DNA of 58,120 nucleotides, taken from positions 1-58,120 of the forward strand of contig CADBBQ010000008.1 in NCBI GenBank assembly GCA_902793005.1, in the 5' to 3' direction. Below the pieces are notes generated by a model. The model saw only the letters and a list, made by a program, of their open reading frames with translations. It ran no database searches and had not been told where the DNA came from. The DNA is from an uncultured Pseudomonadota bacterium. Lineage in GTDB: Bacteria > Pseudomonadota > Alphaproteobacteria > Rs-D84. This document shows positions 5,457 to 45,477 of this stretch, in pieces (the first letter of the stretch is position 1; each line of letters starts with the position of its first letter). The position numbers and the translations under genes were made by a program.

Positions 5457-5944
5457 TAAAAATCTTGTCAATACAATGTATATACATTAGGCGAAAAACC
5501 GGGAAAAAAACGAATCGTTGTCAAAATATAAAAGTTGAAAAAGGAACTAAGAATTTGTTGAAAATTGGAACGGGTGTTCTAAATTTGTAATGTCAAAAAA
5601 AAGAAGAGAAACAAAAACCAAAAAAACATTTGATGATTTGAATTTTTGAGTGTCGGGTGATTTTTTGTGACGAATGTTTTTGAATAAAAATGTTTGGACA
5701 TAATAAAAACCAAAAAAATTAAATTATCAAATTACATTTTTGCGAGAGAGAGTAGGGCATAAATAAACATTGGATTTTTTATCTGAAAATAAAACCAGAT
5801 AAAATTTAATGTTTTTGTGCAGGTGGCTTTTGCAACATTTTTTTGAAAATATTCAATTTAAATGTTGCAGAACAAAACGGTTTGAAAAAATCTCTTGCGC
5901 GGGCAGGAAACTCTTTTCAGAAAGGAAGGAAAAGGAGAAACGGC

Positions 5945-7213
5945 ATGCAGGCAGCAACATTAAAACAAAACGCAAATGTATCTGAAATTCGCGATATGAT
6001 TGCGAAGGAGATGGATTTTGCGGCTTGGACTTCTTGGATTGCGCCGTTGGATTTTAATGTTGTGGATGATGTGTTGGTGCTGATTGCACAAAATCAGTTT
6101 TCTGCGGATTATATTTCGGGTGTTTATGGTGCGTTATTAAAAAATGTTGCGGCCGAATTTGGTTTAAATGTGAAATTGGTTGTGCGTGGTGTGGCGGCTG
6201 CATCAATTGCAAATGATAATAATGTGCAATCTTATGATGCGCCGGTTGTGGAAAAAACATCGCCGGTTGCGTTTGATGCGTTTATTTCATCGGATGAAAA
6301 TGCGTTTGCGTTGACGGCGGCAAAACGCGTGGCGGCCGGGGCGGTATCATTTTCGCCACTGTTTATTTATGGGCCGGCGGGTTGTGGAAAATCTTTGTTG
6401 GCGGGTTGTATCAAATCCGAATCGGAAAATGTTATTTTGATGACGGGTGCGGGGTTTGTTTCGGAATTTGCGCGTGCGTTGAAAAATCGTAATGTGTTCG
6501 CGTTCAAGGATTTCTGCCGCAATTGTGATACATTTATTTTGGATGATGTGCAGAGTTTGGCGGGTAAAAATGCAACAACCGAAGAATTCTTGCAATTGGT
6601 TTTGGATTTGCGTGCCGCGGGTAAAAATGTTGTTTTGACATCCACTGTGGCGCCAAATGCTTTGACCGGTTTTGACAGACGCGCCCAATCATTGTTGGCA
6701 TCTGGATTGGTTGTTGATATGGTGGCACCAAACGCAAATGTTAAACACGAAATGTTGGTGCGCGCCGGGGTTAAATCCGACATCGCTGATGCAATTGCAA
6801 AACGTATCGCGGGTAACGGTCATTTGATTGCCGGTGTGGTGAATAAAATCAAAACATATTCTGAATTGATGGGACAGGACGCCACATTGGATGTTGTGGA
6901 ACATTTGTTGGCGGATACATTGGAAAAATTCAAAACACCAATTTCTATGGTTAAAATGATGTGTGAAAAATTGGGCGTTGCATATGATGCAATTTGTGGG
7001 GCGGGGCGTTCAAAATCTTTGGTATTGGCGCGTCAAATCATTATGGTTGTATTGAAAAATTCGACACGGTTATCTTTGACCGAAATTGGAAATTATGTTG
7101 GTAATCGTGATCACGCAACCGTTATGTATGCATTGCGTCAAATTGAAAAGATGAAACAGACTGATTTGGTATTAGATGCACAGATTAACCAATTAATTGC
7201 CGAATGTAAATAA
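5945..7213 (+). CDS. dnaA: Replication initiator DnaA with a divergent AAA+ domain
   Basis: PLFIYGPAGCGKS, ILDDVQ, domain IV RDHATVMYA; ATG at 5945 follows an AGGAG SD. Confidence 0.9.
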   Translation: MQAATLKQNANVSEIRDMIAKEMDFAAWTSWIAPLDFNVVDDVLVLIAQNQFSADYISGVYGALLKNVAAEFGLNVKLVVRGVAAASIANDNNVQSYDAPVVEKTSPVAFDAFISSDENAFALTAAKRVAAGAVSFSPLFIYGPAGCGKSLLAGCIKSESENVILMTGAGFVSEFARALKNRNVFAFKDFCRNCDTFILDDVQSLAGKNATTEEFLQLVLDLRAAGKNVVLTSTVAPNALTGFDRRAQSLLASGLVVDMVAPNANVKHEMLVRAGVKSDIADAIAKRIAGNGHLIAGVVNKIKTYSELMGQDATLDVVEHLLADTLEKFKTPISMVKMMCEKLGVAYDAICGAGRSKSLVLARQIIMVVLKNSTRLSLTEIGNYVGNRDHATVMYALRQIEKMKQTDLVLDAQINQLIAECK

Positions 7214-17320: not shown

Positions 17321-17486
17321 TGAAAATATAAAGAATTTATACCAAAAATACCGCCAAAATTATGTTTGGCGGTGTTTTTTTGTGGGCCGGGTTTTACCCC
17401 TTGCACCGAATCGGTGTTTTTTGATAAAATGCCAGATAGAATGTAGGAAAAAATAAAAGACAAGAAAGTAAGTTAGGAGTTTTATT

Positions 17487-18605
17487 ATGGAATTTTCTGT
17501 TTTTCGCCAGGTTTTAATCCGTGCGTTGGGTCATATGCAGTCTATTGTTGAAAAACGTGCAACTTTGCCGATTTTGATGAATGTAAAGTTAGAGGTTGCT
17601 GACGATTTGATTTTATCTGCGACAAATGTAGATTTGGAATTGGTCGAACACGTTGCGGCGGATATCACATTGGCGGGTAAAACAACTGTGCCGGTTCAAA
17701 TGTTATATGATATCGTTCGTAAATTACCGGATGATGCAGAAATTTCTTTCAAGCAGACTGGCGACCAATTGGTCGTGTCCAGTGGGCGCGCCGTTTTTCA
17801 TTTGCCAACATTGCCGGCGGAAAATTTCCCGGCCATGGCGGGCAGTAATCTGACCACAAAATTCCAGATGACAACTGGTGATTTGGCGCATTTGATAAAC
17901 CAAACGAAATTTGCAATTCCAACCGATGATGTGCGTTATCATTTGGGCGGTATTTATTTCCATATTTCCGAGGAAGGTAAATCCAAGATGCTGACCGCAG
18001 TTGCAACCGATGCGCAACGTTTGGCATTGTGTGCGATGCCCGCCCCGGTGGATAGCAGCAATATGCCGTCTGTTATTTTGCCGCGTCGTGTGATTGGCGA
18101 ATTATCGAAATTATTAGAGGATGCCAATGTTGATGATGTGACGGTTGAATTGTCGGATACCAAGGCGCGCTTTACCGTTGGTGCCGCCATTTTGACCAGT
18201 AAATTGGTTGATGCACAATATCCAAACTATCGCGTTGTTATTCCAAAGGGCAATGATAAAATTGCCGTTATGGACAGAAAGCAATTTATCAATGCGGTTG
18301 ATTTGGTGTCGGTCGCATCGGTTGATAAAACGAAATCTGTGCAATTGACATTTTCAACAAACAAATTGGTTGTTAACGCGTCCAGTCCCGATGCCGGAAC
18401 CGCAACCCAAGAAATGGATATTGAATACAATGGCGACAGTTCGTTTACCGTTGTTTTCAATGTGAAGTTCTTGTTGGATGTTGCCGGCCAAGTCGAAGGC
18501 GAAAAATTCCAAATGGAAATGCAAGATGCTTTGTCTCCGACAACAATTAAATCCACAGATAAGAAGACGGATGCGTTGTTTGTCCTGATGCCTATGCGTA
18601 TGTAA
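17487..18605 (+). CDS. dnaN: DNA polymerase III beta clamp
   Basis: PILMNV, ATD, YPNY, C-terminal LMPMR; 372 aa. Confidence 0.96.
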   Translation: MEFSVFRQVLIRALGHMQSIVEKRATLPILMNVKLEVADDLILSATNVDLELVEHVAADITLAGKTTVPVQMLYDIVRKLPDDAEISFKQTGDQLVVSSGRAVFHLPTLPAENFPAMAGSNLTTKFQMTTGDLAHLINQTKFAIPTDDVRYHLGGIYFHISEEGKSKMLTAVATDAQRLALCAMPAPVDSSNMPSVILPRRVIGELSKLLEDANVDDVTVELSDTKARFTVGAAILTSKLVDAQYPNYRVVIPKGNDKIAVMDRKQFINAVDLVSVASVDKTKSVQLTFSTNKLVVNASSPDAGTATQEMDIEYNGDSSFTVVFNVKFLLDVAGQVEGEKFQMEMQDALSPTTIKSTDKKTDALFVLMPMRM

Positions 18606-31089: not shown

Positions 31090-33936
31090 ATGAAGCGTAG
31101 AACAGGATTTTATTCAGTAATTTTGACCAGCGTTGTTTGTATGCTGGGTGGTTCTGCGTTTGCGGCATCGTCGGTTCGTATGTTGGGAACGGGGGCGAAA
31201 ACTGTGTCGGCGGGCACAGGGGATGCAACAACGGGTGCGTCCGTTGATGGTGGTGCAAAATCTGGGGTTGCCACAACGGCGGTTGCACAGACAACGCGTG
31301 CATCGTCTTTGCGATTTACGCCAAATGCGACAAATAAAACGGTTGCCGCCCAAGGATATTCGGGGTTGGCAACAAATGGTAATGCGCAATCTGCGAATAA
31401 CAATGGTGTTGGAATTACGACATCGCCGTCGGCACGTTTGTCGATTGGAAAATATCTGAATTTATCACATTCCAGTAATGCCGTGACACCGGGGGGAACA
31501 ACCGGCGGTGGTACGGGAACGGGGACCGGTGCAACGGATGAAAATTTGGATGCATTGCGGACTGAATTGGATGCATTACAAAACCAGGTTGACAGATTAA
31601 AAGATGACAAGCAAAACGCTTTGATTGTTGGTGATGGTGAATATATTGATATTGCCGGGCCGGATAATAATGTTATCTCGATTGATATAAATGCATTAAA
31701 AAATGATTTGCAGGCTGCATTGGATACGAAAAAACCGATACTGACCGAAATAGATGATAACTATAAATTGTGGTGGTGTTATGCCAATGCGACAGAGACC
31801 GCGTGCGATGGCGAAAAACGTTCGGTTGTCGATTTAGGCAAGGTTTTGGAAGAATATGATTTGGCCAATGAAAATATTTCTTTAAAAGATGCGTTGGCCG
31901 GTAAACAGGGAATATTAGGCGAGGCCGATAATGGTTTTATCACAATTAATCAACAGGCTGGGACAATCGGATTGAAATTCGACGAGTTAAGGGCCGCGTT
32001 GGGAATTGATAATGCAAAAACATCTGAAATCAGATATACCGATGATGGTAAACTGCAATGGCGGTATATGGATGAATTTGAGCAAAATGGTGATAAAAAA
32101 TGGAATACGGCCGATATTGCGGCGTTGATGCGTCAAAGTTTGGAAAACTATGTCCAGATTCAGGCATTGGAAGATTATGTGCAAAAATCTGAGTTGTCAG
32201 GATTGCAAACTACATTGGTCGCGGATGAAAACGGTTATTTGAAAATCCAAGATAATCAAATCGGTGTAAAGTTTGACGAGTTGCGGGCTGCTTTGAATAT
32301 TCCAACAGAACGCGAAATCGAAATGGAATTTGACGATGATGGCAAAATCCAATGGCGGTATGCGGGGGCCGATGCGTGGCATAAAACAAATAAAAAAGTC
32401 AGTGATTTTGTTGATTTGTCGGGGTATGTTTTGCGGTCTGAATTGGCCGGATTACAAGGCGCGTTGACTGCAAGTGAAAATGGATATTTGGAAATTAATA
32501 ACAATCAAATTGGTATTAAGTTTGATGATTTGAAAACGGCGTTGGATATACCGGGCGCCCAACGTGATATTGAAATGGAAATTACATCGGCGGGACAATT
32601 GCGCTGGCGTTATTTGGATGCGTTCGAGGCCGATGGTACGACAAAGAAATGGACGCCTGTTTCGGAAAATATCAATGATTTGATTGATTCTAAATTGGCG
32701 GGATACGCCAAACTTGACGATTTATCTGGATTGCAATTGACGATGTCAACGGATGAAAATGGATATTTGGAAATCAATGGCGATACGATAAATGTCAAAT
32801 TTGATAAGTTAAAATCTGATTTGAATATTCCGGCGGCCCAACGCGATATTGAAATGGAAATCACATCGGCGGGACAATTACAGTGGCGTTATCTGGATGC
32901 GTTCGAGGCCGATGGGACTACAAAGAAATGGACGCCTGTTTCGGTAAATATCAATGATTTGATTGATGGTAAATTGGCGAACTATGTCAGTAATGAAAGT
33001 TTGACCAATACATTGAACGATTATGTGACCAACAATAATTTGTCGACCACATTGGCGGATTATGCAACCAAGACATATGTCGATAACGGTTTGGCCACGC
33101 GTCAGGTTAAATTGACCGAGGCCGCAAACGGATTTATTGAAATTAAACCTGTGGATGGCGCAGAGACTAATACAATTGGAATCAAGTTTGATGAATTAAA
33201 AACTGCGTTGAATATTCCAGATGCCAAAACATCCGAATTGCGTGTTAATAACGGTGTGCTGCAATGGCGTTATGTTGATGAATTCGAAGATGAACCAGAT
33301 GCGCAAACGGGCGAGCCTGTTAAAAAATGGACTGATGTTTATGATTTAAATGCAAAATTGGGCGATTGGGTCACGAATACAGATTTTAATGCGGCGATAA
33401 ATCGTATAGATTCTGAATTGGCGGGCAAGCAAATAAAATTAACCCCGGCCGATGGTGGATACATTATTTTGGATGAACAAACTGGTGAAATCGCGGTTGA
33501 TATGTCCAGCCTGCGCCAGCAATTATCGATTGATGGGAATAATGCGCGGACATCTGAATTGCGTGTGTTTGACGGTAAATTGCAGTGGCGGTATTTGGAC
33601 GAATTTGAAACTGACGACCAAAATAACCAGGTTGCTGTGTGGCACGTTTTAGATTTGGATACGGTTGAATTGCCGTTATATACCGAAAAATCATATTTAT
33701 GGAAAAATTATTACAATAAAACATATGTTGACAATTTGGCGCGAACAATTGAAAACAATATTAATACGACATTGGAACGTTTGGCGTTGCCGGATGGGCC
33801 GGATGCTGGGTTGTATATGTTAAGTGTCAAAGGCAGTGGTGATAACAAGGTTTCAACGTGGAGTCCGGTGCAAATCGTCGATGCTGACGGTAATGTCCAG
33901 AATTTCGCCCTGGATAGTTCGGACAGCGGAGATTAA
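31090..33936 (+). CDS. Large secreted repeat protein (about six xxLQWRY repeats)
   Basis: Signal peptide; repeated ENGYLEI...IGIKFDEL...GxLQWRY units; near-identical DNA at 32557-32700 and 32836-32979. Confidence 0.85.
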   Translation: MKRRTGFYSVILTSVVCMLGGSAFAASSVRMLGTGAKTVSAGTGDATTGASVDGGAKSGVATTAVAQTTRASSLRFTPNATNKTVAAQGYSGLATNGNAQSANNNGVGITTSPSARLSIGKYLNLSHSSNAVTPGGTTGGGTGTGTGATDENLDALRTELDALQNQVDRLKDDKQNALIVGDGEYIDIAGPDNNVISIDINALKNDLQAALDTKKPILTEIDDNYKLWWCYANATETACDGEKRSVVDLGKVLEEYDLANENISLKDALAGKQGILGEADNGFITINQQAGTIGLKFDELRAALGIDNAKTSEIRYTDDGKLQWRYMDEFEQNGDKKWNTADIAALMRQSLENYVQIQALEDYVQKSELSGLQTTLVADENGYLKIQDNQIGVKFDELRAALNIPTEREIEMEFDDDGKIQWRYAGADAWHKTNKKVSDFVDLSGYVLRSELAGLQGALTASENGYLEINNNQIGIKFDDLKTALDIPGAQRDIEMEITSAGQLRWRYLDAFEADGTTKKWTPVSENINDLIDSKLAGYAKLDDLSGLQLTMSTDENGYLEINGDTINVKFDKLKSDLNIPAAQRDIEMEITSAGQLQWRYLDAFEADGTTKKWTPVSVNINDLIDGKLANYVSNESLTNTLNDYVTNNNLSTTLADYATKTYVDNGLATRQVKLTEAANGFIEIKPVDGAETNTIGIKFDELKTALNIPDAKTSELRVNNGVLQWRYVDEFEDEPDAQTGEPVKKWTDVYDLNAKLGDWVTNTDFNAAINRIDSELAGKQIKLTPADGGYIILDEQTGEIAVDMSSLRQQLSIDGNNARTSELRVFDGKLQWRYLDEFETDDQNNQVAVWHVLDLDTVELPLYTEKSYLWKNYYNKTYVDNLARTIENNINTTLERLALPDGPDAGLYMLSVKGSGDNKVSTWSPVQIVDADGNVQNFALDSSDSGD

Positions 33937-33962
33937 TCAATCAATATTTTATTGGTTTTGGT

Positions 33963-34164
33963 AAAAAAAATATCGCCGTTGCCGGCGGTATTTTCGAATG
34001 CCCAGAAAGGAAGGAAAGGAGAAAAAGAAACGGGCATTCTAAACTGAATAAAAAGGGCGGGGTCCAAGGTCCAGAGGAGAGAGAATGTAGGAGGGAGTCT
34101 GAACCCTCGGGCCCCTGACGATTGTTTTCACAATCGTTATCAAATGGATTAATCCCTTTGACGA
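33963..34164 (-). ncRNA. Candidate sRNA with C/U-rich loops
   Basis: TTGACA(34198-34193)-N17-TACATT(34175-34170) promoter, four stem-loops, terminator ATACCGCCG-GCAA-CGGCGATAT followed by a U-tract. Confidence 0.7.
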
Positions 34165-34334
34165 ATCGTAATGTAATACATTTTATTTGGTTTGTCAAGT
34201 AATTTTGTCAAAAAAATTTTTCGTATATTTTTTACGCCGGAAATCCTGGGAAAACGTCCGGGTTGAGGGTGTGCTGTCCCTGTTGTAAAATTATATAAAA
34301 AGCATATGGGTTTATGTATTACGGGGGGATTGTT

Positions 34335-34562
34335 ATGACACACGAAGAAGTATGGAATGCGATTGAAAAATTTGCGGTTGAACACGGGATGTCTTGTTCG
34401 GGTCTGGCGCGGTGTGGTGGATTGGACGCGACGACATTTAACCGCAGTAAACGTTGGTCCAAATGTGGCCAGCCGCGTTGGCCGTCCAGCAACAGTATCG
34501 CCAAAATTTTAAGTGCAACCGGCACCGATTTGCACGATTTTACGAAACATATGGAACATTAA
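34335..34562 (+). CDS. HTH regulator (N-terminal domain of the alphaproteobacterial HTH-S24 family, no peptidase domain)
   Basis: SGLARxGGLDATTFNRSKR...RWPSxxSIAKIL. Confidence 0.85.
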   Translation: MTHEEVWNAIEKFAVEHGMSCSGLARCGGLDATTFNRSKRWSKCGQPRWPSSNSIAKILSATGTDLHDFTKHMEH

Positions 34563-45150: not shown

Positions 45151-45179
45151 TTGACAGGTGGGGCGTAAAGTGGTACATT
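45151..45179 (+). promoter_or_regulatory. Sigma70 promoter of acpP
   Basis: TTGACA-N17-TACATT. Confidence 0.65.
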
Positions 45180-45243: not shown

Positions 45244-45477
45244 ATGTCAACTTTGGAACAAGTTAGAAAGATTATTGTTGAAAAATTGGGTGTTAAACCA
45301 GAAGATGTCAAGGAAGATGCAACATTTGTGAACGATTTGGGCGCGGATTCTTTGGATGTCGTTGAATTCGTGATGGAGGTTGAAAAAGAATTCAATATCA
45401 CAATTCCTGATGAAGATGCTGCGAAATTGGAAAAAGTTGGTGATGCGGTCAAATATATCGATGCACACAGAAAATAA
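45244..45477 (+). CDS. acpP: Acyl carrier protein
   Basis: [11 protein letters not shown]. Confidence 0.97.

Follow-up and report, generated by a model that had tools for sequence, protein, structure and literature searches.

We analysed a small RNA (sRNA) gene in a 58,120-nucleotide contig (CADBBQ010000008.1, assembly GCA_902793005.1; the whole stretch is hereafter the window) from an uncultured alphaproteobacterium of the Rs-D84 lineage. The gene occupies the minus strand from 34198 to 33963, promoter to terminator, within the intergenic stretch between a plus-strand repeat-protein gene (31090–33936) and a plus-strand helix-turn-helix (HTH) gene, and specifies an RNA of about 200 nt. The features of the locus are:

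34335–34562, plus strand: divergent gene for a 75-residue Cro/C1-like HTH protein, back-to-back with the sRNA promoter
34211–34206, minus strand: second, upstream TTGACA box, 13 bp before the -35 box
34198–34170, minus strand: sigma-70-type promoter (TTGACA 34198–34193, 17 bp, TACATT 34175–34170), scoring 10/12 in a consensus scan
34162–34139, minus strand: 5' hairpin 1 of the minimum free energy (MFE) fold, present in all 24 aligned species with few compensated changes
34137–34118, minus strand: 5' hairpin 2 of the MFE fold, dispensable
34115–34059, minus strand: stem-loop A, a long interrupted stem holding loop 1
34097–34076, minus strand: loop 1, 22 nt, CUCCCUCCUACAUUCUCUCUCC
34039–33996, minus strand: stem-loop B, an 8–9 bp stem holding loop 2
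34030–34005, minus strand: loop 2, 26 nt, C/U-rich, complementary to the ribosome-binding site (RBS) of dnaA
33995–33963, minus strand: intrinsic terminator found by a terminator scan (stem 33987–33974, CGCCG-GCAA-CGGCG, then ATA and a run of eight U at 33970–33963)

A linker separates stem-loop A from stem-loop B, and to judge from the promoter, transcription would start near 34163. The MFE of the minus strand over 33955–34175 (221 nt) is -65.1 kcal/mol, compared to -46.1 ± 4.0 kcal/mol for shuffled sequences (z = -4.73); none of 200 shuffles was as stable. A first-pass annotation, made from the letters of the window, had described a promoter, two short hairpins, two long stems and a GCAA-loop terminator with a U-tract, all of which are present and correctly placed, and the MFE fold displays the hairpins and loops that it claimed. 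It had also likened the promoter boxes to those of acpP, and this too is accurate: the only other TTGACA-N17-TACATT in the window (45151–45179, plus strand) lies upstream of a 77-residue open reading frame (45244–45477, plus strand) that carries an acyl-carrier-type DSLD motif and which we take to be acpP. The layout with two TTGACA boxes occurs once in this genome. Across 24 aligned species the -35 box does not change and the -10 box follows the pattern TAYWWT, and the TTGAC of both TTGACA boxes is invariant in every species; the upstream box could be a regulator site or a UP-like element.

Of 24 same-genus genomes drawn, 23 contain full-length homologues of the 301-bp region by BLAST (72–94% identity); the remaining one, 84% complete, gave just a 21-nt match. 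Neither loop differs between any of the 24 aligned species, and the stems, the linker and the terminator vary; 5' hairpin 2 is missing altogether in six species. Covariation was measured on a trimmed alignment of 23 sequences with three specified helices (one sequence was dropped, its 3' end being unalignable). The 32 modelled pairs are paired in 92.7% of 736 cells and 13 of them change on both sides. In 500 column shuffles neither the observed pairing nor the observed covariation was reached, and sliding the partners by one to three columns left only 28–52% of cells paired. Stem-loop A contributes 17 pairs (93.1% of cells paired, six pairs changed on both sides) and the stem of stem-loop B eight (100% of cells paired, four pairs with compensatory double changes). 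The terminator stem likewise shows compensated variation between species, and its T-run is preserved on the minus strand.

The same cells discriminate between the strands. G-U cells outnumber A-C cells by 60 to 13, and the minus strand pairs in 92.7% of cells versus 86.3% for the plus strand. This excess identifies the minus strand as the functional one, in agreement with a promoter and a U-tract that also lie on it. A coding sequence was considered and rejected, since the stems carry one-base insertions and deletions and the second hairpin is optional. Together these data make it very probable that the element is a genuine minus-strand RNA gene, and they uphold the proposal of an unannotated sRNA that exposes C/U-rich loops, with promoter, terminator and covarying stems all conserved. 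It shows three traits of trans-acting sRNA genes in general: its own promoter and terminator on one strand, a compensated structure and target complementarity that is kept across species (below). No Rfam family matched the window at gathering scores, and relaxing the threshold to an E-value of 10 over 33850–34400 yielded just five unrelated sub-threshold matches. The resemblance to AbcR and cuckoo sRNAs suggested at first pass consequently holds for architecture and not for family membership, as the curated alphaproteobacterial families (alpha-r14/cuckoo, AbcR) are among those that did not match. The loop sequences, searched as text, do not occur in the main texts of the papers of an open-access library. 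The sRNA is a new family of a known kind, absent from Rfam.

The organism belongs to a lineage whose genomes measure 0.6–1.1 Mb. When 151 genomes of the order were searched with a covariance model built from the genus alignment, every one of the 107 genus genomes yielded a single copy, 13 of 14 genomes from nine other genera of the same family yielded a copy, and 29 genomes of five other families yielded only three weak matches. Loop 1 and the adjoining top of its stem (AGACUCCCUCCUACAUUCUCUCUCCUCU, about 28 nt) have the same sequence in all 24 genus sequences and in all other-genus homologues, in which the stems below share no sequence with those of the genus. Loop 2 is invariant in the genus; in other genera it varies and stays C/U-rich.

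Variant forms of the RNA were seen at five loci, in other genera and in one genome of the genus. Genome G138 holds a second, diverged copy; G127, and a second locus in G170, have versions reduced to stem-loop A that end in a T-run or terminator; in G086 the two stem-loops stand about 140 nt apart. A degenerate look-alike of loop 1 occurs in G027, which belongs to another family.

Loop 2 has its best match in the leader of dnaA, a gene in whose product the DnaA domains were confirmed:

5918–5947, plus strand: predicted target, the dnaA translation initiation region, a purine tract over the Shine-Dalgarno (SD) sequence up to the ATG at 5945

The leader reads CAGAAAGGAAGGAAA-A-GGAGAAAC-GGC-ATG. 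Positions 34003–34017 are identical to 5918–5932, and GGAGAAA then follows after a one-base bulge. Duplexes were scanned over both strands of the genome from exact 7- or 8-mer seeds, a procedure that misses G-U-rich sites without such a seed. In the 7-mer-seeded scan the loop 2–dnaA duplex (-32.0 kcal/mol) is the best trans site genome-wide; the next sites reach -29.2 kcal/mol (at neither an RBS nor a start codon) and -27.3 kcal/mol. Among 744 crude gene leaders the best other than dnaA reaches -23.9 kcal/mol (mean -10.2, standard deviation 3.9); the rank of dnaA itself in that set (182nd) is an artefact of the leader interval, because the gene caller set its start at a TTG 102 nt upstream. 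Full-length cofolding of the sRNA with the dnaA leader gains -25 kcal/mol, the stem of loop 2 opening and the pairing reaching the AUG, versus gains of -7.3 kcal/mol with the dnaN leader and -7.7 kcal/mol with that of the 31090 gene.

The case for dnaA is made by comparison with relatives; the match within this single genome is just moderate against shuffles. Twenty-five of the first 30 genus dnaA leaders read give -29 kcal/mol or better with loop 2, and most of these contain ...ACTCTTTTA(A/G)GGAAGGAAAGGAGAAAC...ATG, an uninterrupted 16–18 nt complement of loop 2. The 15-mer used at first pass, CAGAAAGGAAGGAAA, proved unsuitable as a search pattern, missing most dnaA leaders by reason of their differing 5' edge, and was replaced by a 16-mer centred on the core, GGAAGGAAAGGAGAAA. 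In 61 genus genomes this 16-mer has 93 exact occurrences: 57 are sRNA genes, one per genome, each with an exact copy of the loop 1 sequence 62–71 nt away on the contig, and 36 lie no more than 80 nt upstream of dnaA, on the dnaA strand. There are none elsewhere. Allowing one mismatch adds three further dnaA leaders and eight other places; in four genomes (G000, G019, G004 and G016) the leader has an insertion of 1–2 nt and gives -31 to -33 kcal/mol. Counting these, 43 of the 61 genomes have a strongly complementary dnaA leader and four an intermediate one (-25.6 to -28.5 kcal/mol); two, with dnaA missing or cut at a contig end, were not judged. Across the same genomes DnaA is only 54–89% identical to the protein of the window, and given this divergence the conserved 25-nt leader is not a case of conservation by default. 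Nor does the SD function account for the tract, as the 3' end of the 16S rRNA (…GGATCACCTCCTTT) explains the AAAGGAG part alone, about 7 nt of it. The complementarity proposed from one genome extends to relatives, with exact complements of 16–19 nt in the leaders of most species and nowhere else, and we regard dnaA as a probable direct target of the sRNA.

Beyond the genus, loop 2 and the dnaA leader were compared within each of twelve genomes. One genome of a sister genus (G109) has an exact complement of 19 nt and three others (G116, G144 and G166) have 13 nt; in G127, whose RNA lacks stem-loop B, the dnaA leader has no purine tract.

On the basis of these data our preferred explanation, to which we assign a probability of roughly 0.6, is Hfq-independent repression of dnaA translation. 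An independently transcribed, trans-acting sRNA (minus strand, about 34163 to 33963), in a small-genome alphaproteobacterial lineage without Hfq, would hold two pyrimidine-rich loops open on two long stems. Loop 2 would pair with the dnaA initiation region from about -27 to the start codon, over 15+7 bp here and 16–19 contiguous bp in most relatives. With SD and AUG covered, 30S binding would be blocked, DnaA synthesis would fall and replication initiation with it. The long pairing presented by a loop would replace the need for a chaperone, the 75-residue HTH protein would be the likely transcriptional controller, and loop 1 would have a further partner. Hfq was found in none of the 61 genus genomes, 46 of them at least 90% complete, and neither CsrA nor ProQ was found in this 91%-complete genome; it is because none of the three was found that chaperone-free long pairing occluding SD and AUG is the simplest mechanism. 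Computation shows the anatomy of the gene, its conservation and covariation, its strand and a conserved complementarity to dnaA leaders that no other locus shares; transcription, pairing in vivo, repression and regulation by the HTH protein are inferred.

Several observations weigh against this explanation. The exact 15-mer match to dnaA is reached by 183 of 2,000 composition-matched shuffles of loop 2 (9%) and an energy of -32 kcal/mol by two of 119, so that the dnaA match stands modestly above background in this genome; the loop 1 matches put forward beside it do not stand out. Loop 2 is invariant even though 12 of the 43 genus leaders read reach just -17 to -24 kcal/mol, the level of an ordinary RBS, and eight of the twelve other-genus genomes have an exact complement of 9 nt or fewer. 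Within the genus loop 2 does not vary, and so no compensatory change linking it to the dnaA leader was seen. Genes for secreted proteins often have an RBS of the form AAAGGAAGGAAAAA-ATG, so loop 2 could have a wider range of targets. That the effect is repression is assumed solely from the position of the site. Public RNA data speak neither for nor against a discrete transcript: ten runs on record as RNA contained 5–21% of the sampled words, and four libraries from four studies gave one to five shallow contigs each (depth 2–9, without strand or ends, DNA carry-over being possible). Between them they lie over parts of the element, the HTH gene and the last stretch of the upstream gene; one spans the terminator. 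As the other genera mostly lack the match and the loop is nonetheless invariant in the genus, dnaA is neither the sole nor the ancestral constraint on loop 2. Deep-branching species, too, retain the loop although their dnaA leader does not match it. The invariance in species without a dnaA match argues that loop 2 has further duties; the sequences suggest that the C/U-rich loop is old and that the dnaA leader came to match it closely in the clade containing the genus.

Such further duties are the substance of the strongest alternative: a general anti-SD sRNA of the alpha-r14/cuckoo or AbcR kind, whose short seeds would silence the RBSs of many genes, chiefly for secreted and surface proteins, dnaA being one target or an incidental one. 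Both loops hold cores resembling the anti-SD of 16S rRNA (CCUCCU, CUCCUUU), and loop 2 does not change even in species whose dnaA leader lacks the match. When a sub-pattern of loop 2 was followed up in 20 loci, every second site proved to be an RBS (-17 to -30 kcal/mol), in front of paralogues with signal peptides, a Cys-rich membrane protein or a protein resembling ExbB, and many of the top matches in this genome are signal-peptide proteins as well. Ultraconserved loops on variable stems also fit the description of alpha-r14 (PMC10746234). However, the second sites were chosen by the pattern itself, which makes their complementarity circular; short seeds do not explain 22–28 invariant nt per loop; and the 16–19 nt complement in dnaA, far beyond a seed, is found nowhere else; dnaA is the sole orthologous target shown to be conserved. 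We consider a general anti-SD role without a dedicated dnaA function unlikely, if the most credible of the alternatives. As a separate observation from the same 20 loci, an RBS of the form GAAAGGAAGGAAAAA(A)ATG recurs in many species of the genus before paralogous signal-peptide proteins (MKVKNI..., MKKILT...), and it also precedes a Lys/Cys-rich membrane protein and an ExbB/TolQ-like protein.

Loop 1 poses a different problem. Its complement was sought in the 61 genomes as a 16-mer with up to three mismatches and as an exact 12-mer and 11-mer, and no complement of 11, 12 or 16 nt is conserved outside the sRNA gene: each pattern found the sRNA gene and no more than six scattered places, about the rate of reversed-pattern controls. 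Long targets of loop 1 were rejected on the strength of these searches. Short-seed targeting of many RBSs, or binding of a conserved protein, would explain the invariance. S1, Rho and cold-shock or KH proteins bind pyrimidine tracts of this kind. It is conceivable, although we hold it to be distinctly improbable, that the RNA is more than a dnaA repressor and that loop 1 docks a core machine (the ribosome via S1, Rho or another pyrimidine-binding protein), coupling the state of translation or transcription to initiator synthesis. A separate alternative, to which we give less credence still, makes the RNA primarily a protein- or ribosome-binding one, its pyrimidine tracts, loop 1 above all, sequestering or recruiting such proteins and the dnaA pairing being secondary. 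The family-wide identity of loop 1 and its stem top over stems that are entirely different below speaks for this, as do the want of a conserved complement of at least 11 nt and the genomes that keep stem-loop A alone; the exclusive dnaA complement of loop 2 would be left unexplained. Finally, a functional plus strand (a purine element with GGA loops that would serve as a CsrA-type sponge, as the HTH gene's 5' leader or as the 3' untranslated region of the upstream gene) is highly improbable. In its favour, hairpins look much the same on either strand, GGA occurs several times in the plus-strand loops, a contig from one RNA library continues from the upstream gene into the element, and a weak plus-strand ylbH-leader match scores 22.6 bits (cut-off 50); but promoter and U-tract lie on the minus strand only, the pairing asymmetry between the strands points the same way, the element does not qualify as a CsrB/RsmZ-type sponge in a genome where CsrA was not found, and the upstream neighbour changes between species while the element stays.

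Repression of dnaA through loop 2 thus remains our preferred explanation. The first-pass annotation had gone further, proposing that the sRNA coordinates the replication initiator with the clamp by means of a loop 1 match in the dnaN leader:

17433–17449, plus strand: weak candidate site for loop 1 in the dnaN leader (14/15 match at 17434–17448, 37 nt upstream of the ATG)

The match is present, just after a promoter-like TTGCAC-N18-TAAAAT, and a related motif, RRGARTGTAGG, stands at the same place in 27 of 30 genus dnaN leaders, with A-to-G differences that would keep G-U pairs; two other genera have 13-nt versions and several have no motif. The recurrence is suggestive. The duplex reaches only about -19 kcal/mol, which is about tenth among seeded genome sites and 15th of the 744 leaders, and in the small cofold gain reported above loop 1 is unused. 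The dnaA side of the proposed coordination is sustained by comparison and the dnaN side is weak; we judge a direct link to dnaN doubtful. Two other suggested targets of loop 1 fall away. The 11/11 match at the start codon of the 31090 gene exists and ranks 10th of the 744 leaders, and an exact 11-mer is reached by 1,027 of 2,000 loop 1 shuffles (51%), which is background; so is the match at 5744, ranked 11th in this genome.

The leaders of both replication genes have features of their own. Directly upstream of the dnaA purine tract, at 5893–5917 (plus strand), a small hairpin (UCUUGC-GCGG-GCAGGA) followed by AACUCUUUU scored as terminator-like, and the motif ...GGCAGGAAACTCTTTT is kept in most relatives (30 loci of dnaA leaders); the hairpin could be an attenuator or a cis-acting anti-SD element. 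The AT-rich intergenic region of about 490 bp before dnaA (5457–5944) may hold the replication origin and the dnaA promoter. About 50 bases more than in relatives separate a conserved GTGCAGGTGG...TTTTxCAAC block from the dnaA leader hairpin in this genome. In the dnaN leaders (17400–17432, plus strand; 30 loci) a near-invariant block, CTTGCACCGAATCGG(N2)TTTTTTG(A/G)TAAA, is readable either as a hairpin plus T-run or as the TTGCAC-N18-TAAAAT promoter. Across the 61 genus genomes DnaN (17487–18605) is 77–97% identical to the protein of the window, an unusually large difference in rate from DnaA (5945–7213).

The HTH gene is adjacent and divergent to the sRNA in all 24 loci, and the neighbour on the terminator side differs by species (the 948-residue repeat protein, a TrmA-like methyltransferase, LpxI or others). 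Divergent pairs of a regulator and an sRNA are a common arrangement. The protein matches HTH_26 of Pfam at E = 0.014, below the cut-off; NCBIfam gave nothing and the PDB sequences nothing meaningful. Homologues are labelled by their sources as an HTH regulator or as the N-terminal part of a phage repressor, and close homologues of the gene neighbouring the sRNA as coming from uncultured Alphaproteobacteria. Of the suggestion that this gene controls the sRNA, the linkage is firm and the regulation plausible: from the linkage, the 75-residue protein may act on the sRNA promoter. Feedback in the other direction was considered and not kept as a finding. The RBSs of the HTH gene give a mean of -15.3 kcal/mol with extended loop 1 over the 24 loci, about the 8th percentile of a crude background, and exact complementarity is limited to certain species. 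This start-region complement, to the 3' half of loop 1, was seen at four loci and others (15 nt in G008, 11 nt in G017, 10 nt in G013 and G014), and both this genome and its nearest relative lack it.

The A/T-rich promoter stretch with its two TTGACA boxes (34191–34221, minus strand) has matches of 21–65 bp, 80–100% identical, at second places in eleven relatives and none in this genome; these may be other promoters under the same control. On the far side of the sRNA gene, 31090–33936 (plus strand) encodes a signal-peptide protein of 948 residues with no Pfam family and with internal repeats of about 90 residues (35–40% identity). It is 74% identical over the 352 C-terminal residues compared in the nearest relative, is absent from that position in the others, and is probably a fast-evolving surface protein.

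In function, the known system that comes closest is EcpR1 of Sinorhizobium meliloti and other Rhizobiales (PMC4414408). A conserved loop of this RNA pairs with the RBS and start region of dnaA and with gcrA, and the RNA represses dnaA, is Hfq-independent and is induced by stress. Common to both are an alphaproteobacterial trans-acting sRNA, two stem-loop domains, a conserved loop directed against the dnaA RBS and start, and independence of Hfq, the pairing and the independence being predictions for the RNA described here; EcpR1 links conditions to replication initiation. Against this, the EcpR1 loop is GC-rich whereas the present loops are C/U-rich, EcpR1 acts on gcrA as well, the predicted pairing of the present RNA extends much further (16–19 nt), and EcpR1 is encoded downstream of divK-pleD rather than back-to-back with a gene for a 75-residue HTH protein. 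The two share no similarity in sequence or model, nothing related having appeared in the Rfam scans.

The nearest structural parallel is the alpha-r14/cuckoo family (for example NfeR1), portrayed in the account cited above as three hairpins with variable stems, each bearing an ultraconserved, unpaired 9-nt CCUCCUCCC (PMC10746234). On that portrayal the likeness lies in ultraconserved, pyrimidine-rich, anti-SD-like loops on stems of differing sequence, and, as predicted for the present RNA, in the targeting of translation initiation regions without Hfq. The differences are equally plain: two different loops (22 and 26 nt), neither containing CCUCCUCCC, no three-hairpin plan and no Rfam match. 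In Bacillus subtilis, a cis-antisense RNA over the dnaA 5' untranslated region is reported to control DnaA production (PMC12112137); it resembles the present RNA in being complementary to the dnaA leader, but is encoded opposite dnaA, whereas this sRNA is encoded 28 kb away and would act in trans.

Uncultured host-associated bacteria with genomes near 0.9 Mb keep few regulators with which to match replication initiation to conditions. Here a single-copy RNA gene is present without exception in the genomes of a genus of more than 100 species, and its invariant 28-nt loop 1, for which no conserved complement was found, is a sharp puzzle; should the docking of loop 1 to a core machine prove true, the RNA would be a housekeeping riboregulator of growth rate in Hfq-less reduced genomes. 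Annotators gain a covariance model for a family missing from Rfam. The mirroring of the dnaA RBS by loop 2 over 16–19 nt offers a concrete post-transcriptional control point for DnaA; if our preferred explanation is true, it would join EcpR1 as a second, independent case of an alphaproteobacterial sRNA directed at dnaA, and one from a lineage in which Hfq did not turn up.

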